Shown piece after piece: positions 2,861 to 41,191 of a DNA stretch of 42,559 nucleotides. The stretch lies in the IMG/VR virus record IMGVR_UViG_2872698443_000008; one strand, given 5' to 3'. The notes beneath the pieces are model-generated. The model saw nothing but the letters and a program-made list of their open reading frames with translations, was not told the origin of the DNA and ran no database searches. The translations under genes were made by a program, and so were the position numbers. Positions within the stretch are counted from its first letter, which is position 1; every line of letters starts with the position of its first letter. Origin of the DNA: a virus (Duplodnaviria; Heunggongvirae; Uroviricota; Caudoviricetes).

Positions 2861-3076
2861 TTAGACTTCAATCGATTCAGAGATCTCTAACGCATCATCG
2901 ACTTCAATGCCCAGATAACGGAATGTGCTTTCCAGTTTCTTATGACCCAACAGAAGTTGAATCACCCGAAGATTCTTGGTCAGCGGACAATAGGTGCAAC
3001 GCCATATTGAACCCTTAAGACTAAAGTGGACCGATATAGTAAGCGTTACACTGACCCGTTGCCAGCATCGAAATGC
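2861..3076 (-). pseudogene. Tyrosine recombinase C-terminal remnant (no start codon, ~70 codons open)
   Basis: Minus-strand translation reads ...TKNLRVIQLLLGHKKLESTFRYLGIEVDDALEISESIEV*, resembling the LLGH...Y box II region of integrases/Xer recombinases. Upstream frame closed by a stop at 3077-3079. Confidence 0.4.
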
Positions 3077-3344
3077 CTAAGCTACGAAAACTCTTTGACG
3101 GACATAATGTTCCTCATGTTTGCCACATGTCTCCGATTGAGCACAACTATAGTCTGCTGATGAGACTAATTATGGCACTGAGCAGACCTGCTCGCTAGGC
3201 GAGATCCGCTGTGAGCGAATTGCAGAGGTCTCGAATATGCTTGATAATAATGCTTGAAGATATAATTGGTATGAGCCTGAAAATTTATTTTTAAAGAATT
3301 ATTAAATACTGCCGATGTTAATAATTATACTAAAAAAAAGGAAC

Positions 3345-3851
3345 ATGGAATTTATGTTAAATTTAGACGAAATGTGCAGCGCATTAAGAAAACAATACTC
3401 TATAACGGCTGGTCAAGATGGTGAGAAATATGCTAGTAGATGGCTGGAAAAATCCAAGTGGAAATTTGAACATGTTGAGCAAGGAATAAATACTTTATCT
3501 GCAAACTTGAAATCATATGGGGGGAAACGCCCCGATTTCATTATTGACGCTGACGAATCCTCTTATATTCTTTTAGATGCGAAGTATCACTCAACAGATG
3601 GGTGTACCTCCTTTACACTTACTGATTGTGAAATAGGAAAGTATAGAGCACTTCAGCAATTCTTAAAAAATGTGTATAGTGATTGTACTTTCGAAGTAGT
3701 CTTTATGGTGTTTCCGAAAGAAAAAAATGGTGACGAATTTACATTTGTGAGTCTAGATGAGTTTGATAAAGGAGAGTGTACGACTCTAGCATCAAAAGAT
3801 GCAACGAAAATTAGTCTACTCTATCGAGATGACTTATGGTTTAAAAGTTGA
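3345..3851 (+). CDS. Small low-GC protein with PD-(D/E)xK nuclease-like motif (about 168 aa)
   Basis: ORF 3315-3851; ATG at 3345 follows AAGGA (ATG at 3354 is an alternative). Motif KRPDFIIDADESSYILLDAKYH (PD ... D-A-K). Markedly AT-rich relative to flanks. Confidence 0.6.
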   Translation: MEFMLNLDEMCSALRKQYSITAGQDGEKYASRWLEKSKWKFEHVEQGINTLSANLKSYGGKRPDFIIDADESSYILLDAKYHSTDGCTSFTLTDCEIGKYRALQQFLKNVYSDCTFEVVFMVFPKEKNGDEFTFVSLDEFDKGECTTLASKDATKISLLYRDDLWFKS

Positions 3852-4193
3852 TTAATAAAAAACAATTGGCTTTCACCATTTTTAATTACTTTTCCCAGCA
3901 TGCCGAAAATGTCTCATTTATTTGAATGATTGTATCTTTAATAGATATATCGCGACTATTCCTAAACTTATTTCTAGTTGTTAACAAAACTGTGTGCTAT
4001 GAATGTCTGCTGTTGGCACATAGCAGTTCTAGAGACAGTGGCGTAAAGTCATGGAGAATCGGTGGAAGGAGGTGCAAACCCTCTCATACAAAAATGCGTA
4101 AAATCAGTAACGGCTGGAAATCATTCAATACTCGCACTATCAAAAGTTCACCAGCCAACCGCGACACCTCCTGCATACGACATGTCTGCGGTT

Positions 4194-24750: not shown

Positions 24751-25101
24751 TTACTTAATCCGTTCACGGGCCGTCTTCGCCTTATGACACGGCCAGCACA
24801 GACTCTGTAGGTTACTGTCTGCATCGGTGCCGCCATGCGCTTTAGGGATGATGTGGTCAACGGTTTTCGCCTCGCGCACCACACCGGCACGCAGGCACAA
24901 CTGGCACAGGCCTTTGTCACGCTTCAGCACACGCGCGCGGATAACGTCCCACTTCGAACCATAACCGCGCTGATGACGGGACTGGCCAGACTTGTATTGC
25001 TTCCAGCCTTCGCTTTTGTGGCTTTCGCAGTAGCCTGATGGGTCAGTCGTGGTATGGCGGCAGCCGCGAACGCGGCAGGCTTTTGGGGTTCGTGGAGGCA
25101 T
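24751..25101 (-). CDS. HNH endonuclease (terminase-associated)
   Basis: 116 aa, Cys-rich with ...VDHIIPKAHGGTDADSNLQSLCWPCHKAKT... HNH motif. Confidence 0.85.
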   Translation of the reverse strand: MPPRTPKACRVRGCRHTTTDPSGYCESHKSEGWKQYKSGQSRHQRGYGSKWDVIRARVLKRDKGLCQLCLRAGVVREAKTVDHIIPKAHGGTDADSNLQSLCWPCHKAKTARERIK

Positions 25102-25228
25102 CTATTATCCCTGTAGTTTTCGTTAAATATCTAACCATAACTGCAATCAGAAACCGCTTTAACACGGTTTGCTAAATAGACTTTTCAATCCAATGAATAA
25201 ACGGCAAGTAAATACCAATCGTTCATTT

Positions 25229-25675
25229 TCATTTGAATACAAACTGTTCTGAAAGAATATTATGACAAATATATTTCGCCTGAATACTATTATCTCTCAT
25301 TCTAATATATTCTTTGTGGGCAACAGATAAAGAACGACAACCGCTGTTTACACGTGGGTATTTTTCCAACATATGTTCGCATATCAAAAAAGCATTATTA
25401 ATAGCATTTAATTTATGGCTTAACTCTCGTAGCTCGGCCCTTTTTTCAATACGAACATTACGACTAAGAGATAAAGGTAGCTGTGATAATGCATTTGAAT
25501 AATCAGCCACTGCCATTTTCAGAGCCATTTTGGCCTTCAGAGCCTCCTGTCGCCGCCAAACATTCATTGCCCAAAAACCTAATGTAACAGTTACAATTGA
25601 ACCTAAAGCCGATACAGCTGACCACACAGTTCCCCAAGGCCAGTTAAGTAATGTATGCCACATCATAACCTCCAC
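25229..25675 (-). CDS. Low-GC membrane-anchored hypothetical protein (moron)
   Basis: 148 aa; N-terminal hydrophobic helix WGTVWSAVSALGSIVTVTLGFWAMNVW; AT-rich, with a 350-bp AT-rich upstream region. Confidence 0.5.
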   Translation of the reverse strand: MEVMMWHTLLNWPWGTVWSAVSALGSIVTVTLGFWAMNVWRRQEALKAKMALKMAVADYSNALSQLPLSLSRNVRIEKRAELRELSHKLNAINNAFLICEHMLEKYPRVNSGCRSLSVAHKEYIRMRDNSIQAKYICHNILSEQFVFK

Positions 25676-26031
25676 TGAATGAAAAGGTTAGTTTATCGTA
25701 AGTGAACATCACTGGCACTATCTAAAGATTAGCTGCTCTACTAGTTGTACTCTCGATAATCTAAACAAAATGATACGTAATAAACCTGTTCATGACTAGC
25801 TCTACTAGACACATGTTTAATCATCTACAAACGATTTGTACAAACTTCCACTTTCATATTGGTCCAAAATGTTGGACTAATAGTTAATCACGATGCATAT
25901 TTTATGTAAGCTGCTACATTACACTATAAAAACGCTGGCGTCTGAATTTAAGCCCATAAGTTTTATAAAATTATCATAATACACAGCTTTATTAGGCGCA
26001 TTCGCACTGATAATGAAAAATATAACTCGAG

Positions 26032-26304: not shown

Positions 26305-26581
26305 CCGCAACAGCCACTTTGATATCTTCCTGGGTTCTCTGTGACTCCAGTGCGATCTGCTGTTTTGCATGCTGGTTAACCTCTATAACTGTATTGACGA
26401 TTTGCAGTGATTGCAGGACGTTACGGGTAATGGCTGTTGCAGATTCAACATTTTGTACAGCCTCATCAGCACGTTTCTTTTCGTGCTGATATTTGCTGTA
26501 GTAGTGGTTGGCAGACCAGATGAAAGAACCGATGACAGTAAAGAAGAATGCAGCGATAACCAGCTTATAGCTCAACTTCAT
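26189..26581 (-). CDS. Rz-like inner-membrane spanin
   Basis: 130 aa, N-terminal TM then coiled region; follows endolysin. Confidence 0.7.
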   Translation of the reverse strand: MKLSYKLVIAAFFFTVIGSFIWSANHYYSKYQHEKKRADEAVQNVESATAITRNVLQSLQIVNTVIEVNQHAKQQIALESQRTQEDIKVAVADDDCASRPVPAAAADRLRKFANGLRERSGGTTASQPDF

Positions 26582-27041
26582 TTACCACCCCACCAGCCTC
26601 TTTAAACCGGGAAATCAGGTCACCGATTTTATGTTCATACTGACCGTAACCTGCACCAGGTAACGACGCCCAGATATTGCTGCAACGATCGATAGCCTGA
26701 CGGATATCACCGCGATCAATCATCGGTAAAGCGCCACGCTCTTTAATCTGCTGCAATGCCACTGCGTCCTGGCTTTTGGGGGAGAAGTCTTTCAAACCAA
26801 GCTGTTTACGGTAAGCATCCCACCAGCGTGAAAGAAGCTGATAACGTCCGGCGGCTGTTGATTTGAGTTTGGGGTTTAACGTGACAAGTTTGCGAGGGTG
26901 ATCAGAGTAATCAGTAAACAGTTCGCCGCCAACAATAACATCATAACCGTGGTTACGTGTCGGTTGTCGCCCGTTATCCGTTCCTTCTGACCATGCAACC
27001 ATATCCAGGAAAGCTTTACGCTGGGAATTTAGTACCTGCAT
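26565..27041 (-). CDS. Endolysin (lambda R-like lytic transglycosylase)
   Basis: 158 aa, ...NSQRKAFLDMVAWSEGTDNGRQPTRNHGYDVIVGGELFTDYSDHPR... closely resembles lambda R. Confidence 0.9.
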   Translation of the reverse strand: MQVLNSQRKAFLDMVAWSEGTDNGRQPTRNHGYDVIVGGELFTDYSDHPRKLVTLNPKLKSTAAGRYQLLSRWWDAYRKQLGLKDFSPKSQDAVALQQIKERGALPMIDRGDIRQAIDRCSNIWASLPGAGYGQYEHKIGDLISRFKEAGGVVNEVEL

Positions 27042-27044
27042 AAA

Positions 27045-27380
27045 TTACTCCTTCGAGCTACCAAACTTGTTACCGATTACTCTCATTGCAGCCCCACGAA
27101 TAGCATCGACACCGATCAGCCCCACCCCACCACCAATGGCAACAGAAAGCGATTTAGGCCATCCGACATACTCAAGCGCGGATGCAAAGGTCAACGTCAG
27201 AGCGCCACATAGCAAAATCTCGAGCGTTTTTCGCTTCCAGCCACCACCACCGCCAAAATAGGCGATGCGCAAACCAGCCATAACAATCGACATAATCACT
27301 GCGCCCAGCGGCGTATCTCCACGCCACCAGCTCTGAAACAACTCCAGCCAGTCCGGCCAGGTATTTGGGTTATGAGGCAT
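27045..27380 (-). CDS. Putative holin
   Basis: About 111 aa from internal Met (MPHNPNTWPDW...) chosen because the longer ORF would run through the terminator; hydrophobic segments; immediately upstream of endolysin. Confidence 0.5.
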   Translation of the reverse strand: MPHNPNTWPDWLELFQSWWRGDTPLGAVIMSIVMAGLRIAYFGGGGGWKRKTLEILLCGALTLTFASALEYVGWPKSLSVAIGGGVGLIGVDAIRGAAMRVIGNKFGSSKE

Positions 27381-27420
27381 TTCGTCATCTCTCACCTCGC
27401 GATATTTGCGGGTGCTGTGT

Positions 27421-27449
27421 TGGAAATAAAAAGGCCACGCAACGTGGCC
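27421..27449 (-). terminator. Intrinsic terminator after the methyltransferase gene
   Basis: Minus strand reads GGCCACG-TTG-CGTGGCC followed by TTTTTATTT. Confidence 0.6.
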
Positions 27450-27456
27450 ACCAGAA

Positions 27457-28509
27457 TTATTTCCCCACCAGTTCACTTACCTCTTTCACCGTCTGATTAA
27501 ACCGCTCTGACTCAAGTTCAACACCTAACGCCCGACGCCCCAGCGCCATTGCCGCTTTTATTGTGGAACCGGATCCCATAAAGAAATCAGCAACCAGATC
27601 GCCTTGTCGACTACTGGCACTGATTATTTGCCGGAGCATATCCGCAGGCTTCTCACACGGATGTTTACCCGGGTAGAACTGAACGGGTTTATGCGTCCAG
27701 ACGTCGGTATAAGGCACGGAAACTGATACGGAGAAATAGCGCCGGAGAGTTTTAAACTCATCCAGCAATTCATAATATTTGCGATTCAGTGAATCATAAG
27801 ATGCCACCAGCTGGTGGTGTGGTTGTTCCAGTTGTTGTTCCTGAAACTTCTCTGCCGCTATACGGGAAAACAGTGCCTGCAACTTCCGGTAGTCAGCCTC
27901 ATTCGGCAACTGCCACTGACTGGCACCAAACCAGTGGGAAACCATATTTTTCTTACCAGTGGCTTCGGCAATCTGTTTTGCCGTTATACCCAGTTCGGCA
28001 CGAGCATCCCTGAAATACGATATCAGCGGTGCCATTATGTGCTGTTTGAGTTCCCTTTCTTTTGCCGCATAGCCGTCACTTTTGCCGCGATATGGCCCCT
28101 GGTAATGTTCAGCAAACAGAACGCGCTCTGTGGCAGGAAAATATGCGCGCAGACTTTCTTTATTACACCCATTCCAACGTCCGGACGGCTTCGCCCAGAT
28201 GATATGGTTAAGCACGTTGAAACGTTCACGCATCATGATCTCAATATCAGATGCCAGGCGATGCCCACAGAACAGGTAAAGGCTTCCGGCAGGTTTCAAC
28301 ACCCGCCAGAACTGGGCCAGACAGTGGTCCAGCCACTTAAGGTAATCTTCGTCCCCTTTCCACTGATTGTCCCAGCCGTTGGGTTTCACCTTGAAGTAAG
28401 GCGGATCGGTAACAATCAGGTCAATGGAATCATCAGGCAGGGACTGAATAAAATGCAGGCAATCAGCGTTGATTAAATCAACACTGTTTATTTTTACAGT
28501 ATTTTTCAT
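27457..28509 (-). CDS. DNA methyltransferase (DPPY motif, N6A/N4C class)
   Basis: 350 aa; LIVTDPPYF near N-terminus, FMGSGST near C-terminus; no adjacent endonuclease. Confidence 0.85.
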   Translation of the reverse strand: MKNTVKINSVDLINADCLHFIQSLPDDSIDLIVTDPPYFKVKPNGWDNQWKGDEDYLKWLDHCLAQFWRVLKPAGSLYLFCGHRLASDIEIMMRERFNVLNHIIWAKPSGRWNGCNKESLRAYFPATERVLFAEHYQGPYRGKSDGYAAKERELKQHIMAPLISYFRDARAELGITAKQIAEATGKKNMVSHWFGASQWQLPNEADYRKLQALFSRIAAEKFQEQQLEQPHHQLVASYDSLNRKYYELLDEFKTLRRYFSVSVSVPYTDVWTHKPVQFYPGKHPCEKPADMLRQIISASSRQGDLVADFFMGSGSTIKAAMALGRRALGVELESERFNQTVKEVSELVGK

Positions 28510-28659
28510 GGATCAGTAAGCGTAACTCTGGTAGGCTCACTCTGCTTTTGCGCTAAAGCAGTGGGCCGTGGTTCGCTTGTGACCAGTAGGCATGAGCGAA
28601 TGGCTGGCAGGTGCTACCAACACCCACCAGCCGCCCATTTTCACAGCAGGAAACCGCCA

Positions 28660-28887
28660 TTACTGGCAGCGTCTGAATTTATTCCCGTACCCGCCGTTAT
28701 CCTTCGCCAGACCCGCCAGAACTAACTGAGTCAGTATTAACTGGCACCGGGCTTCGCTTACTCCGGTAGTTCTCGTCATCATGCGTGGCGTTACCCACTT
28801 GTCAGCAGGTAAGAAATGAAGGACTGCGGCGGCGGTTTCTGTCATATCTTGCTGTTTTAGCATGTCTTTTTCCCTTCTGGTTAACAT
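28660..28887 (-). CDS. Small hypothetical protein
   Basis: 75 aa ORF between late-promoter region and methyltransferase. Confidence 0.35.
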   Translation of the reverse strand: MLTRREKDMLKQQDMTETAAAVLHFLPADKWVTPRMMTRTTGVSEARCQLILTQLVLAGLAKDNGGYGNKFRRCQ

Positions 28888-29182
28888 GACATACCAATAA
28901 CTCTTGTCTAAAAAGCCAGCAAGATAAAAAGTCAGTATTCACGACCACCAGCGTGTTTACTGTGCTGCACCAAGTTTACAGGTACAAAAAAACCGCTCAG
29001 CGGCGGGTTTAAGTTGTGTGGCGAAGTAACCACTCTTAACACAGTAATCTAGAAAATGCGGACCGCGTTAGTGATTTTTATCTGTTTTTCCATTATTTTT
29101 TTGCCACACAGCTTAAAACGAAAAATAAAGCAGGCGTTGCCAAACCTCACGGTGACAGTTGGCTTAGAATGAGGACATATTT
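28888..29182. promoter_or_regulatory. AT-rich intergenic region downstream of Q: expected late promoter/terminator region and promoter of the reverse-oriented gene
   Basis: Position after the Q gene; minus-strand hairpin CCGC-TGA-GCGG followed by T7 (about 28986-29003); GAGGA 7 nt before the TTG start at 29183. Confidence 0.35.
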
Positions 29183-30202
29183 TTGGATAAGTTTGATGAG
29201 ATTCATGTAGACATTGAATCTGAGCAGCAAGCCTTCGATTTGCTTGAAAGCTATCTTGATGGTTATGGTTTACCTGACAGTTTAAGTTTCAACGGATGGC
29301 CAAACCTTACCATCAGATTAACCGGTGAAAAATTCAACAGATCGCTAACACCTTCAGTTATGAAGGGATTTGTTGAAATGCAAGCTCAAATCAACAAATC
29401 ATATGCCCTTGCCAAGTACGGTGTCCCTGACGTCCGCAAACTGACCAAAGAAGAACTTGATGCCCTAGAAATAGAAGTTACGGTAGAACAGGGTTCTTCA
29501 ATAGTAGAAATCAACATTGATGGCTTTTTAACCAAACTCACACAGGAACTTGTTGGTAAAATGAACGCAACTGAGATCATGTTTACTGTTCTCGGCGCAG
29601 CAGTCATCTGGGGCGGAGTAACAGTATTTAAACGGTTCTTGGACAACCGTAAAGATATTCGCCTTGCAGAAATTGCTAAGGATGGAGAGAAAGAACATCT
29701 CCGGACTATGCAGATCATGAGCGAGCAAGAAACTAAACGCCTGCGGGTTATTTCAGAAATGATTGCGGAAAAACCACTTCTCGATAACATGGACCGTATG
29801 TCGTATGACGCTAAAACCCAAATGGTCAAATCCTTTGTGCGTTCAGATAACGCTCAAATTGATGGCGTTACTATTGATTCTGAAATGGCGAAAGAGTTGG
29901 TTACGAATGCTCGTAGACGTTCATCAGAAATGAGGATTGATGGTATTTACCGAATTGAAGAAGTCAATAATACTGACCCAGAGAGTTTCAAAGTTAAGGT
30001 CCGACGCGTAGATACCGACCAACGTCTAACCTGCGTAGTTCAGGATGTTTTCCTTGATGAATCCGGAAACAAAGAAGCATTGCAGCGAGCTGAGTGGGAA
30101 AGAAAGCCTGTACATTTGAGCATTAACGCAAAACACGTCGATGGTGACATTAAGTCAGCAGTAATTCTCTATGTTCGAGATGTGGAACAAAAGCCCGAGT
30201 AA
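29183..30202 (+). CDS. Reverse-oriented low-GC protein with single central transmembrane helix (339 aa)
   Basis: Long ORF opposite to all neighbours; TTG start with GAGGA at 29171-29175; central hydrophobic segment ATEIMFTVLGAAVIWGGVTVF. Confidence 0.6.
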   Translation: MDKFDEIHVDIESEQQAFDLLESYLDGYGLPDSLSFNGWPNLTIRLTGEKFNRSLTPSVMKGFVEMQAQINKSYALAKYGVPDVRKLTKEELDALEIEVTVEQGSSIVEINIDGFLTKLTQELVGKMNATEIMFTVLGAAVIWGGVTVFKRFLDNRKDIRLAEIAKDGEKEHLRTMQIMSEQETKRLRVISEMIAEKPLLDNMDRMSYDAKTQMVKSFVRSDNAQIDGVTIDSEMAKELVTNARRRSSEMRIDGIYRIEEVNNTDPESFKVKVRRVDTDQRLTCVVQDVFLDESGNKEALQRAEWERKPVHLSINAKHVDGDIKSAVILYVRDVEQKPE

Positions 30203-30216
30203 TCGGGCTTCAATAA

Positions 30217-30609
30217 TCAATCTTTAATTTCGGGGTCCATCTCTAGACTAATTTCCAGCATCGATAGGCAGCCATCAATAAACCCCTCAGCCATCTGTAT
30301 CTCAATGCGTATTAGTTTCTCATCCTTTTTACGAGCCTTGGCGAGCTTTCTTTTAGAGATACCGTATAGGTAATGGGCAACAAGAAGCGAATGTTCGTCC
30401 GGCCTTTTTTGCCTTAGACGAGCAAGACAACCTTCAATAATTAATGCATCACTATCTGAACATGCCTGACGTGTTTTGCTTGTATAGGGAAGAAGCCCTT
30501 TAAACCCAGCAGCTATAGGAGAATAGTCTACTCCTGAACTATCACTCGCCGCCCATGCTCCCCAACGATCCAGAACCATTTGAATATCACGCATCAACTT
30601 TCTCCACAA
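30217..30609 (-). CDS. Late-gene antiterminator Q (phage 82/21 type)
   Basis: MRDIQMVLDRWGAWAASDSSGVDYSPIAAGFKGLL... resembles Q-family N-termini; true start may be the Met 5 codons in. Confidence 0.7.
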   Translation of the reverse strand: MWRKLMRDIQMVLDRWGAWAASDSSGVDYSPIAAGFKGLLPYTSKTRQACSDSDALIIEGCLARLRQKRPDEHSLLVAHYLYGISKRKLAKARKKDEKLIRIEIQMAEGFIDGCLSMLEISLEMDPEIKD

Positions 30610-30611
30610 AA

Positions 30612-31607
30612 TCAGGCCAGCACGCCAATTGCCAGCGCACGATCGATAAAACGAAATATCAGCTCCAACTGAGAGCCATACTTTTCTTCAAATACCACGG
30701 TATCCGCATGCAGCTCGTCGTGATGCTTTCTGCACAAAGGCAGCACGAAGAGGTCATGCGCTTTTGTACCCATTCCACCCTGACCGTGGCCTATCAGGTG
30801 GTGGGGATCATCTGCAGGCTTTCCACAACATGCACACGGCTGCGTCTTAACCCAGCGCGTGTACTTTTCGTTAACCCAGCGGCGACGTTTGGGACGTAAC
30901 ATAAAAGACTCCGGCGACTCCGGATCCACTTTCAGCGCCAGCACCTTTTTCGCTTTATCCTGGATGATGCTGGTGGCAGGAACCGAAGGCACAAGGTCAC
31001 TTTCCCGGGTGACAGACGGCACAACAGGCTTCGGTAATCTCAGTGCCTTACGGGCTGCGCTTTCCGGTAAGGCATCCGCCAGGTCATTACGAACCAGCCA
31101 CCAGCACAGTTCCGGCATTGTCACAACGTGACTGTCATCAAAACCGAGATCCCGACGCACGACAGACAACACCCAGCGGGCACAGTTATCCGTTGCCATT
31201 GATTCCAGCCGTTCCGTGAATTGATCGCGCAGCTGGTTATCGCAGTGCCAGCACAGACGGATTGCGCCCGGAGCATGTCGCATTGTGGTCATGTTCTCGC
31301 TGTGCCAGCCGGAATGAGGCCACTGACAGCCTTTTTCACGAAGTAACCAGCTTTCAAGACATTCCACGCCACCAGCACGACGGATCACTGCCTCATTACG
31401 GAACACGGCCCGAACGGCAGGATCATCCGCCAGTGGTTGTGATGCCGCCGGAACGGCACCACTGGCAAAAGATGAATAACGTTCCGGCTCAGGCTCCAGC
31501 AGGACACGCCCCTGCATAAACAGGGGCATCAGCTCTGAACCAGGCCTGAATAATACGATCCCCATACGCGGGGCAATTTCAGGGGTCAGTAGTGCTCTCA
31601 CGGTCAC
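30612..31607 (-). CDS. Nin-region protein with C-terminal Cys/His HNH-like motif (DUF968-like)
   Basis: 331 aa, ...CACCGKPADDPHHLIGHGQGGMGTKAHDLFVLPLCRKHHDELH. Confidence 0.55.
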   Translation of the reverse strand: MTVRALLTPEIAPRMGIVLFRPGSELMPLFMQGRVLLEPEPERYSSFASGAVPAASQPLADDPAVRAVFRNEAVIRRAGGVECLESWLLREKGCQWPHSGWHSENMTTMRHAPGAIRLCWHCDNQLRDQFTERLESMATDNCARWVLSVVRRDLGFDDSHVVTMPELCWWLVRNDLADALPESAARKALRLPKPVVPSVTRESDLVPSVPATSIIQDKAKKVLALKVDPESPESFMLRPKRRRWVNEKYTRWVKTQPCACCGKPADDPHHLIGHGQGGMGTKAHDLFVLPLCRKHHDELHADTVVFEEKYGSQLELIFRFIDRALAIGVLA

Positions 31608-36450: not shown

Positions 36451-37125
36451 ATGAAAACAATCCATGACATCCGGCGGTCTAACGCCAGAAAACTGAGAGA
36501 TGGTGTTGGCGGGAATTCTTCCTTTGCCACTATGATTGATCGCGAGCCAACCCAGACCAGCAGGTTTATGGGAGATGGTGCTACTAAAAATATCGGTGAC
36601 AGCATGGCACGACACATCGAAAAATGTTTCGACCTGCCTGTCGGATGGCTCGATCAAGAACACCAGACAACGAACATCACAAAAAAACCTGATGTTTCAA
36701 TCACTAATAAACAAATCACATTAGTCCCTGTCATATCATGGGTACAGGCCGGAGCATGGAAAGAAGTTGGATATTCTGAGGTTGATTTGAGCACAGCAGA
36801 AACGTATCCCTGCCCTGTACCCTGTGGGGAAATGACTTATATCTTGCGGGTGATAGGTGATTCAATGATTGATGAGTACCGCCCGGGAGACATGATTTTT
36901 GTCGATCCTGAAGTACCTGCCTGCCACGGTGACGACGTTATTGCATTGATGCACGATACAGGCGAAACCACCTTCAAAAGGTTGATAGAAGATGGGACAC
37001 AGCGTTATCTCAAAGCGTTAAACCCAAACTGGCCTGAGCCTTACATTAAGATCAACGGTAATTGCTCTATAATTGGTACAGTGATTTTCTCAGGAAAACC
37101 AAGAAGATACAAAATCAAAGCCTAA
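36451..37125 (+). CDS. CI-like repressor with S24 (LexA-type) autocleavage domain
   Basis: 224 aa; C-terminal ...RVIGDSMIDEYRPGDMIFVD...TTFKRL... (Ser/Lys dyad context). Confidence 0.8.
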   Translation: MKTIHDIRRSNARKLRDGVGGNSSFATMIDREPTQTSRFMGDGATKNIGDSMARHIEKCFDLPVGWLDQEHQTTNITKKPDVSITNKQITLVPVISWVQAGAWKEVGYSEVDLSTAETYPCPVPCGEMTYILRVIGDSMIDEYRPGDMIFVDPEVPACHGDDVIALMHDTGETTFKRLIEDGTQRYLKALNPNWPEPYIKINGNCSIIGTVIFSGKPRRYKIKA

Positions 37126-37359: not shown

Positions 37360-37566
37360 ATGCACAAAACAGAACCCAAAATCGTCGCGCCTGGCTACAC
37401 AGATGAGGAAATTTATGAGTGGATGACAAAGAAGCTGGCAGCTATAAACCAGCTTCGTGAAGTGCTGTCTTATCGACAGGAAACAATAGACTCCTTAAAA
37501 AAACTGGATCAGGAAATCACAGTTTTATCACAGGATGTTACTTTAGATATTGTGCAGACAAATTAG
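37360..37566 (+). CDS. Small hypothetical early protein (68 aa)
   Basis: ATG at 37360 preceded by GAGGAGG (37347-37353); first ORF after the PL-like promoter. Confidence 0.5.
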   Translation: MHKTEPKIVAPGYTDEEIYEWMTKKLAAINQLREVLSYRQETIDSLKKLDQEITVLSQDVTLDIVQTN

Positions 37567-37972
37567 GATCCCATTCATTTTCGTCAAAATTATCAAAGTG
37601 ATGAATTTGTGATCTCCAGTCTCGATAATCTAAAAATTTCTGGGCGGTTACGCTTATTTTATCAAGTGTGAGTTCATCCTGAATTGAAAGAAGAAGTTCA
37701 TCAAATTTCATCTCATTAATCTGTTTTGGCATCCAGTGATGCTTCATCAGAATAAGGTGAACCAGAGCCTTTTTCCCATTCAACTGATTATAGGGAGTGC
37801 CGAATTTCTTCCGGTGCTCATGTAAGACAAGGTCCAGAAGAGTAAGTAATGTTGCCCTTGATTCAACTTTGCTTATTTCGACTGATGACACTACCCCACT
37901 GATTTCAATGCCCCGATACTTTCCAACATTTTCACAGTGGGATTTGTACAGCGTGTAGATATTACCGGACAT
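37538..37972 (-). CDS. Low-GC hypothetical protein transcribed against the early-left operon
   Basis: 144 aa ORF, AT-rich, AAAGGA before ATG; direct repeats immediately upstream. Confidence 0.55.
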   Translation of the reverse strand: MSGNIYTLYKSHCENVGKYRGIEISGVVSSVEISKVESRATLLTLLDLVLHEHRKKFGTPYNQLNGKKALVHLILMKHHWMPKQINEMKFDELLLSIQDELTLDKISVTAQKFLDYRDWRSQIHHFDNFDENEWDPNLSAQYLK

Positions 37973-37987
37973 TTCTTTTCCTTTTGC

Positions 37988-38039
37988 GTTGTTGGGGATA
38001 ACCAGATTAACCGAATCCTTGTTGTTGGGGAATAACCAG
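37988..38039. repeat. Two direct repeats upstream of the antisense gene
   Basis: gttgttggggataaccag (37988-38005) and gttgttggggaataaccag (38021-38039). Confidence 0.6.
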
Positions 38040-39711: not shown

Positions 39712-40061
39712 TGGAGCCATACAGCCTCACACTCGATGAGGCCTGTCATTTTCTCAAGATATCCAGACCGACTGCCATTAACTGGATACGCACAGGGCGT
39801 CTTCAGGCAACACGTAAAGATCCCACTAAGAATAAATCTCCTTACCTCACAACACGACAAGCCTGCATTGCGGCTCTTCAGTCTCCGCTGCATACTGTCC
39901 AGGTGAGCGCGGGTGATGGCATAACAGAGGAAAGAAAATGTCACTCTTCCGCAGAGGTGAAATATGGTACGCCAGTTTCACATTGCCGAACGGTAAAAGA
40001 TTTAAACAGTCTCTTGGAACAAAGGACAAAAGGCAGGCGACAGAACTCCATGACAAGCTAA
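39711..40061 (+). CDS. xis: Excisionase (AlpA/Xis-type HTH)
   Basis: Start at [36 protein letters not shown]; 116 aa frame overlapping the integrase start by about 120 nt. Confidence 0.7.
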
Positions 40062-41101
40062 AGGCTGAAGCATGGCGGGTCAGCAAACTTGGTGAAATAC
40101 CTGATATAACGTTCGAGGAAGCTTGTGTCAGGTGGCTTGAAGAGAAAGCACATAAAAAATCACTGGACGATGACAAAAGCCGGATCGGATTCTGGCTTCA
40201 ACATTTCGCAGGAATGCAACTAAGAGACATTACTGAATCAAAAATTTATTCAGCAATGCAGAAAATGACGAACCGGCGTCATGAGGAAAACTGGAAACTC
40301 AGGGCAGAAGCATGCAGAAAAAAAGGGAAACCTGTTCCAGAATACACGCCAAAACCAGCGTCCGTTGCAACGAAGGCTACGCATCTTTCATTTATAAAGG
40401 CCCTACTAAGAGCCGCAGAGCGTGAATGGAAAATGCTGGATAAGGCACCAATTATTAAAGTGCCTCAACCAAAGAATAAACGGATCCGCTGGCTGGAGCC
40501 CCATGAAGCACAAAGGCTGATTGATGAATGTCCGGAGCCATTAAAGTCTGTTGTTGAATTTGCACTGGCAACAGGCTTAAGACGCTCGAACATCATCAAC
40601 CTTGAATGGCAACAAATAGATATGCAGCGCCGGGTGGCATGGATAAACCCGGAAGAGAGTAAATCAAACCGCGCAATTGGCGTTGCGCTGAATGATACTG
40701 CATGTCGCGTATTGAAAAAACAAATCGGGAATCATCACCGTTGGGTATTTGTGTACAAGGAAAGCTGTACCAAACCAGACGGAACGAAAGCGCCAACAGT
40801 AAGGAAGATGCGGTATGACGCAAACACAGCCTGGAAAGCGGCGCTGAGACGGGCTGGTATTGATGATTTCAGATTTCACGACTTGAGACACACCTGGGCA
40901 AGTTGGCTGGTTCAAGCCGGAGTCCCGTTGTCAGTGTTACAGGAAATGGGAGGCTGGGAGTCTATCGAAATGGTTCGTCGATATGCTCACCTTGCACCTA
41001 ATCACCTTACCGAACACGCACGGCAAATAGACTCGATCCTGAACCCATCGGTCCCAAATTTGTCCCAGTCAAAAAATAAGGAAGGTACTAATGATGTGTA
41101 A
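39938..41101 (+). CDS. int: Tyrosine integrase (P22 Int type, thrW-specific)
   Basis: 387 aa, [40 protein letters not shown]...; catalytic region ...[20 protein letters not shown]...VRRYAHL; ends 15 nt from the tRNA. Confidence 0.95.
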
Positions 41102-41115
41102 CTTATTGATTTAAA

Positions 41116-41191
41116 TGGTGCCGATAATAGGAGTCGAACCTACGACCTTCGCATTACGAATGCGCTGCTCTACCAACTGAGCTATATCGGC
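41116..41191 (-). tRNA. thrW: tRNA-Thr (anticodon CGU)
   Basis: Reverse complement reads GCCGATATAGCTCAGTTGGTAGAGCAGCGCATTCGTAATGCGAAGGTCGTAGGTTCGACTCCTATTATCGGCACCA. Confidence 0.9.

Follow-up and report, generated by a model that had tools for sequence, protein, structure and literature searches.

The window analysed here is a stretch of 42,559 nucleotides from a virus of the Caudoviricetes (IMG/VR record IMGVR_UViG_2872698443_000008). One of its genes, at 29183..30202, runs on the plus strand where all the real neighbours lie on the minus strand. It sits between the gene for the late antiterminator Q and the genes that Q would be expected to serve, and its product is not recognisable at sight. 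What is a gene that faces the late operon doing in this place? It could protect the lysogen from other phages, as an earlier note made from the sequence alone had proposed. It could also influence the phage's own development, or contribute to lytic growth in spite of its orientation. Evidence that bears on these readings comes from the gene itself, the layout of its locus, the positions taken by its relatives and the predicted structure of the protein.

A genuine gene of foreign composition

The open reading frame encodes 339 amino acids from a TTG start codon (29183..30202, +), with a GAGGA Shine-Dalgarno sequence 7 nt upstream (29171..29175, +). The list of open reading frames, the sequence and RefSeq agree on this call, as the earlier note had made it; an identical 1020-nt coding sequence is held by RefSeq/PGAP under WP_000357056.1 as a "hypothetical protein". 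The note was also right about the strand, which is opposite to that of the neighbours, and about the low GC content, which is 42.0% (GC3 38.5%) against 51.0% for the window.

The reading frame is a genuine gene under strong purifying selection, with dN/dS near 0.02. Comparisons with orthologs of 95–98% protein identity give dN/dS values of 0.014–0.021, and the product is still 86–88% identical in orthologs in which the synonymous sites are saturated, so a chance open reading frame can be set aside. The TTG start and the Shine-Dalgarno sequence are retained in diverged orthologs, the latter as GAGG[AG] in those linked to Q, and of the 103 loci examined, 75 have TTG as their first start codon. 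The exact DNA of the gene occurs in 87 of 5,426 complete Escherichia coli genomes (~1.6%).

A slot between Q and a conserved late-control block

The gene converges tail to tail on Q (30217..30609, −; PF06530, E 2e-52), a distant relative of Q21 (E 7e-4), whose end lies 14 bp from the stop of the gene. Beyond Q is a DUF968/HNH gene (30612..31607, −). The opposite flank holds a 75-aa phrog_331 gene (28660..28887, −), an N6/N4 DNA methylase of 350 aa (27457..28509, −; orphan type II MTase model, E 3e-152), a class 3 holin (27045..27476, −) and a presumed lysozyme (26565..27041, −), which itself matches nothing in Pfam and is assigned by position and by the annotation of related loci.

Alignment of the region upstream of the gene in 18 Q-linked loci, whose proteins are 68–100% identical, brings out a block of ~66–70 nt (29013..29078, −) that is nearly invariant in all of them. 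The sequence to the left of this block is unrelated between Q-linked loci, and in cargo-free phages such as PhiR49_2 the block abuts the stop codon of Q. On the late strand it is always followed by a GC hairpin and a run of T, which in the window form a tR'-like terminator of that strand (28985..29006, −); the element is annotated "terminator" in phage Ayreon. From this arrangement we infer that the block is probably the Q-specific late promoter or Q-utilisation region, with the putative tR'-like terminator after it. No −35, −10 or QBE element could be pinpointed in the block, and promoter prediction on the late strand gave no clear call. The QBE repeat of Q21 is TGAGCA (PMC6606751), and direct reading of 29013–29182 finds this repeat absent. 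An Rfam match to the enterobacterial sRNA STnc130 at 28882–29018 (+) overlaps the terminator region; it scores 25 bits (E 0.65) where the gathering score is 55, and is probably noise.

With the tR'-like terminator on one side and the holin on the other, the phrog_331 gene and the methylase (27457–28887, −) stand first in the late operon; the same pair is present in mEp460 and cdtI.

Similarity to cargo-free phages ends at ~29042–29079. From there to the start codon extends an AT-rich region specific to the cassette (29079..29182, +), presumed to hold the gene's own promoter. A search of 29079–29182 gave no convincing sigma-70 consensus and no conserved promoter-like element, and the sole sigma-70-like match (29152–29181) would start transcription within the reading frame; the want of a convincing promoter upstream of the gene counts against the anti-phage role preferred below. 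The other end of the cassette is better defined. An 8-bp hairpin, AAGCCCGA-GTAA-TCGGGCTT (30191..30210), holds the stop codon in its loop and ends 6 nt from the stop of Q. It folds on both strands (−13.6/−13.8 kcal/mol, z −2.5/−2.8) and is kept in 16 of 16 diverged Q-linked loci, in most of them with a run of T after it. The hairpin is likely to terminate transcription in both directions and to shield the cassette from Q.

Other phages use the same slot for other genes. In cdtI it holds orf53, encoding 147 aa, and orf54, encoding a DUF6731 protein (L094 2743–4131), in SfIV it holds SfIV_48 and SfIV_49 (L096 2405–3827) and in the DLP12 prophage of E. coli K-12 it holds the porin gene nmpC, reversed between quuD and essD (L095 3530–5826). 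The cargo of all three is oriented against the late genes. These cargos were excluded as relatives of the family described below (hhalign probability below 1%), and the uncharacterised ones have no match in PADLOC. Reverse-oriented cargo thus recurs between Q and the late-control block, which makes this gap a hotspot. The likeness to DLP12 extends to slot and orientation, with quuD (+), nmpC (−) and essD/rrrD/rzpD (+) in order; NmpC is an outer-membrane porin unrelated to the window protein, and a search of DLP12 did not reveal the window's conserved late-control block. A further case is the lc gene of phage PA-2, which we take to be a reverse-oriented moron after a QuuD-type Q, like nmpC.

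A gene lodged between Q and the late-control block would be inherited together with Q. If the block is the cis-acting site of Q, this position would also explain why Q and the DUF968 gene are the constant neighbours, adjoining the gene in about 50 of 80 IMG/VR loci, and why the opposite flank is variable.

The gene is absent from the otherwise colinear PhiR49_2, the slot can hold other cargo, the GC content deviates from that of the window and relatives occupy at least six other kinds of slot. The gene is accordingly a mobile, self-contained prophage moron of foreign composition, a conclusion with strong support that upholds what the earlier note had said of it.

A widespread family of unnamed proteins

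The note had not recognised the protein, and homology searches lead to a single family, phrog_6191 of PHROGs v4, labelled "unknown function". The match (E 1.6e-152, 508 bits) spans residues 3–337 of 339 and positions 2–337 of the 338 in the profile, and the window protein is a typical, full-length member. A profile search of 1.84 billion representatives recovers at least 1,518 clusters at 50% identity, 591 of them at E <= 1e-30. The homologs are of constant length (~335 aa) and all unnamed. Their hosts are Enterobacterales, Pseudomonas, Acinetobacter, Moraxella, Pasteurella, Halomonadaceae and Burkholderiales, and the family is widespread in prophages of Salmonella, Klebsiella, Pseudomonas and Acinetobacter. 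A few homologs are carried on plasmids, including plasmids of Vibrio and Syntrophotalea.

Comparison with curated families suggests that this member of phrog_6191 belongs to no named family. Pfam and NCBIfam scans of the window protein and of remote homologs return nothing above threshold. PADLOC-DB v2.0.0 has no family that matches the window protein at E <= 0.1 or any of three remote homologs at E <= 0.01. A search of PDB sequences with the family profile gives none at E < 0.1, the best being HEXIM1 at E 0.12, which is noise. This lack of sequence similarity in PADLOC, Pfam, NCBIfam and the PDB weighs against an anti-phage role. Literature searches by accession, family and domain names turned up nothing on a phrog_6191 protein, and no expression or phenotype data were found there for the family.

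Several matches were considered and set aside. Pfam DUF7947 matches the C-terminal domain of 9 of 39 members, distant ones, all below the gathering threshold of 27 bits (best 18.7 bits), and the window protein has no match to it. A GpJ FNIII-A match is likewise below its cutoff (18.6 bits against 27). Neither identity is adopted, as the scores fall under threshold. A fold search of BFVD returned three phage proteins that resemble the window protein in layout and are themselves uncharacterised (E ~1e-5, TM 0.24–0.32). One of these carries DUF6575, which is among the new defence domains in Vassallo et al. 2022; this link is not adopted either, as no HMM match backs it.

Predicted architecture and a marginal hydrophobic helix

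An AlphaFold2 model built on an alignment of 39 sequences is confident (pLDDT 83.3, pTM 0.68). It predicts an acidic alpha/beta domain at the N terminus (aa 1–125, modelled over ~8–123; 29183..29557, +), then helices from 129 to 218, the first of them hydrophobic, a small beta-hairpin plus helix, and a five-stranded OB-fold barrel at the C terminus (aa 248–333; 29924..30181, +). The hydrophobic helix is rich in glycine (aa 131–149, IMFTVLGAAVIWGGVTVF; 29573..29629, +) and may be a marginal transmembrane helix or an oligomerisation helix; it is followed by a charged helical stalk (aa ~151–219; 29633..29839, +). The earlier note had divided the protein into a soluble N-terminal domain, a single transmembrane helix and a C-terminal domain. 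The N-terminal domain and the central helix stand, the last ~190 aa resolve in the model into the helical stalk plus the OB-fold barrel, and the helix is marginal as a membrane span.

The N-terminal and OB domains are the best-conserved parts of the family, and the N-terminal domain is the part that can still be aligned by BLAST in the remotest members. The fold searches gave no match for the N-terminal domain. Residues G48, T56, Q67, L87, G104 and S105 of the N-terminal domain are invariant, as are Y256 and A326; no catalytic motif is evident among these invariant residues. The pI of the N-terminal domain is ~4.4–4.8, with a net charge of about −8. The OB domain is mildly acidic, with a pI of 5.4 (family median 5.7) and a net charge of about −2, unlike typical nucleic-acid-binding OB folds. 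No basic nucleic-acid-binding surface was found on it, and this acidity (pI ~5.4) is a point against an anti-phage role for the protein. The likeness to the OB-fold superfamily (SilF/CusF, AB5-toxin B subunits, SSB/PriB/RecO, Teb1/Cdc13) is at the level of the fold only, covers a quarter of the window protein and comes with 5–17% identity.

The note's central transmembrane helix is present as a hydrophobic, glycine-rich helix at aa 131–149, and its insertion looks marginal. The Kyte-Doolittle value of the best 19-mer, 1.77, is borderline. The uncharged run is only 18 residues long in the window protein and 12–15 in many distant members, where K, H or E intrude. A Hessa-type estimate for the best 19-mer, a crude and position-independent sum with scale values reportedly those of Hessa et al. 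2005, is about +2.7 kcal/mol, and it exceeds +2 in 33 of 39 members. The C-terminal flank of the helix is rich in K and R (5 in 15 aa) and the N-terminal flank is not, so that if the helix spans the membrane the positive-inside rule predicts an N-out/C-in topology. This topology would require the 128-aa N-terminal domain to be translocated without a signal peptide, and neither a signal peptide nor a lipobox was found in the window protein. Since the helix is marginal and such translocation would be needed, membrane insertion is about as likely as not; otherwise the helix would be buried or serve in oligomerisation. In most members it lacks the length or the hydrophobicity for a confident transmembrane call, which also counts against the preferred anti-phage reading.

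The same features bear on the main rival mechanism, itself conjectural, which is superinfection exclusion at the envelope. The protein would then be a bitopic inner-membrane protein whose acidic N-terminal domain, in the periplasm, blocks genome entry in the manner of HK97 gp15, P22 SieA or T4 Imm. The K/R-rich flank and the charge of the N-terminal domain fit an N-out/C-in arrangement, relatives are found next to the tail-tip gene J and the tape-measure gene, and the weak match to the FNIII-A domain of GpJ points the same way. Set against this are the unaided passage of the N-terminal domain across the membrane, a helix that is marginal for insertion in most members and a protein much larger than known Sie proteins. 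The broad spread among hosts and the presence of a relative in a restriction-modification operon outside any prophage are, moreover, atypical for exclusion proteins that are specific to a receptor or to entry. Envelope-level exclusion is on this balance unlikely.

Relatives downstream of CI and in many other slots

Outside the clade linked to Q, the dominant slot is directly downstream of a CI-type repressor gene on the same strand, and the slot directly downstream of cI is the position of rexAB in lambda. Relatives with this placement include one from Salmonella, Klebsiella and E. coli (63% identity, hundreds of contigs) and a remote member in E. coli phage phi458 (hhalign 98.4% over 316 columns). 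Others are found in Morganella, Moraxella phage Mcat17, Acinetobacter, Pseudomonas (read from the map of open reading frames) and metagenomic phages. Among 135 de-duplicated neighbour proteins, the commonest families are the S24-peptidase (8) and HTH_3 (8) repressor domains and CII. No partner gene is conserved across the clades of phrog_6191 loci.

At least six other accessory-gene slots of unrelated temperate phages are occupied as well. They lie between tail genes I and J in Pseudomonas aeruginosa, between the tail tube/DUF6246 genes and the tape-measure gene, between the integrase and tail-fibre genes, within the Mu-like head module of Vreelandella, at the early/late junction of Mu-like phages and next to gpD in a P2-like phage. 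One of these loci (L107) had been considered as a restriction-modification locus; it was rejected as such, being a Mu-like head module.

These positions bear on a non-defence accessory role, in which the gene would tune the lysis-lysogeny decision or the induction of its own prophage, serve in counter-defence or give the host a fitness trait. The commonest slot apart from Q, directly downstream of CI, is one where switch regulators also reside, a gene next to Q could in principle affect late gene control, and the protein has no homology to defence proteins. The slots are nonetheless many and unrelated (tail, head, Mu-like, P2-like, beside the integrase), so that the function cannot depend on CI or Q, and members also occur outside prophages, in a restriction-modification island and on a few plasmids. 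Neither Pfam nor the AlphaFold model gives the window protein a DNA-binding HTH or another recognisable regulatory domain. The probability of such a role is judged low, about the same as that of envelope exclusion.

In some phages the gene shares its orientation with the structural or late operon that contains it (L005, L091 and L107), which leaves room for a lytic-cycle protein, whether structural, assembly or lysis accessory, and to that extent detracts from an anti-phage role. These cases are the Pseudomonas copy between tail genes I and J, the Vreelandella copy in the Mu-like head module and the copy in the late operon of L091, and OB-like barrels do occur in tail proteins. In the window and in ~50 related loci, in contrast, the gene runs antisense to the late operon, from a site upstream of the late-control block. 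It is also missing from closely related functional phages, found beside CI and in a restriction-modification operon that is not of phage origin, and given no structural category by PHROGs. A part in the lytic cycle is therefore very improbable, more so than the two alternatives above.

Bona fide defence genes adjoin a family member at two loci. In Pasteurella phage Pmp14 the relative directly follows a complete type VI retron (HTH_VI 2e-32, RT_VI 2e-88), and a metagenome-assembled genome of the Burkholderiaceae has one flanked by hsdS and hsdM, within a type I restriction-modification operon outside any prophage (HsdS 2e-78, HsdM 3e-117, HsdR 4e-107). Short reading frames of this operon look, by eye, like an MNT/HEPN-like pair.

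The retron of the temperate phage Pmp14 (L003 4653–5907) is annotated merely as "transcriptional regulator" and "polymerase". The Burkholderiaceae operon (L106 2627–12090) also holds a PDDEXK_2 protein and two small reading frames, its hsdS is seemingly split into pieces of 84 aa and 308 aa, and the phrog_6191 member lies on the opposite strand.

Some other neighbourhoods have content of their own. Two Acinetobacter prophages (L110 8308–12193 and L114 4550–7700) carry an accessory cluster downstream of CI on the same strand. Both encode the family member together with a GGDEF-domain protein and a conserved protein of 100 aa, L110 encodes an HSDR_N nuclease-like protein as well, and the two are possibly multi-gene lysogenic-conversion or defence clusters. 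One Mu-like and one P2-like phage (L117 4245–4730 and L118 3536–4060) each encode, upstream of their family member, a protein of 161–174 aa (24% identity between the two, E 1e-7) that may be a clade-specific partner. The most divergent member examined, on a metagenomic contig (L121 1419–4935), has surroundings that are not phage-like: a glutaredoxin gene lies upstream of it, and NfeD and two Band_7 (SPFH) genes follow downstream on the other strand.

A candidate single-gene anti-phage system

A general anti-phage role is the best explanation for the gene, with a probability of roughly one half from its genomic context. It is favoured because of the broad host range, the mobility between slots, the absence of secretion signals, the weak start codon and the occasional defence neighbours, although these last amount to two loci. 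Since the gene is strongly conserved and carried in slots where temperate phages usually keep host-protecting genes, it is a good candidate for a new single-gene anti-phage defence and, as a prophage moron, is probably protective. The superinfection-exclusion or abortive-infection role proposed earlier thus draws on context, in the form of the position downstream of CI, the type VI retron and the restriction-modification operon, and finds no homology or structure match to known defence families.

Expression from a repressed prophage would suit such a role. The orientation away from late transcription and convergent on Q fits expression from a repressed prophage rather than in lytic growth, and the hairpin that appears to insulate the gene, like the place of its relatives in cI operons, is consistent with the same timing. 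A lysogen would express the gene from its own unit, with a ribosome-binding site, a weak TTG start and the stop-codon hairpin as terminator. During lytic growth, transcripts reading through from the early operon would be antisense to it.

The preferred mechanism, which is conjectural, is an intracellular sensor of the Abi/Rex type coupled to the membrane. The protein would act alone, as an anti-phage protein of the abortive-infection or exclusion type expressed in the lysogen. With the OB fold or the N-terminal domain, its soluble domains would sense a component of the incoming phage, whether protein or nucleic acid. The hydrophobic helix would couple this recognition to the inner membrane by anchoring or by oligomerisation, and the net effect would be a Rex-like function within one polypeptide. 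In its full form, the proposal makes phrog_6191 a new and very widespread single-protein Abi/exclusion system, an analogue of RexAB in one polypeptide, with a sensor in the OB fold or N-terminal domain and a glycine-rich helix that oligomerises in or perturbs the inner membrane. The family would persist in lambdoid phages partly through its position between Q and the cis-acting site. All these parts together are put forward tentatively, and the whole is doubtful to a degree that the general anti-phage role is not.

The comparison with RexAB is positional. Many relatives share the slot of lambda rexA/rexB, downstream of cI on the same strand, and the logic of a soluble sensor with a membrane element would be shared by inference, the membrane element of the window protein being putative. 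Lambda rexAB is a gene pair, whereas phrog_6191 is a single gene, and the window copy adjoins Q rather than cI. Beyond a generic OB barrel, no likeness in sequence or fold to solved proteins was found for the family.

Single-gene exclusion or abortive-infection proteins of prophages include HK97 gp15, P22 SieA and BTP1 BstA. Gifsy-1 HepS is another single-gene defence protein of a prophage (PMC13043305). These four, too, come from stand-alone prophage genes, found in moron slots such as tail modules or the site that follows the repressor gene. Their features, namely small polytopic membrane proteins, KilA-N or HEPN, are absent from the window protein, and no homology to them was found. The elements described in the papers on HepS and svsR are unrelated to phrog_6191.

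Defence genes of the PrrC/RloC type lie embedded in type I restriction-modification operons. One phrog_6191 member likewise lies inside such an operon, between hsdS and hsdM, as a single instance. Unlike PrrC and RloC, the family has no ATPase or anticodon-nuclease domain, and this member and the hsd genes are on different strands.

If the family is anti-phage, a common defence gene that current predictors miss would be added to those known, with an architecture that matches no known defence protein. Cargo that lies between Q and its late-control block is genetically tied to Q, and this arrangement could serve to mine more accessory genes. The gene is worth experimental testing, though it is not surprising in itself.

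Other features of the prophage

Three further patches of the window have low GC content (34–38%), at 3001–4000, 25001–26000 and 37501–38000. Their reading frames (3315..3851, +; 25229..25675, −; 37538..37972, −) are likely additional morons. The last of them lies just past the CI-like gene of the prophage (36451..37125, +). A reading frame of 387 aa (39938..41101, +) is presumed from its size and position to encode the integrase, and it ends 15 bp from a tRNA-Thr(CGT) gene (41116–41191, −). This arrangement at 39938–41191 probably indicates where the attachment site and one boundary of the prophage lie.
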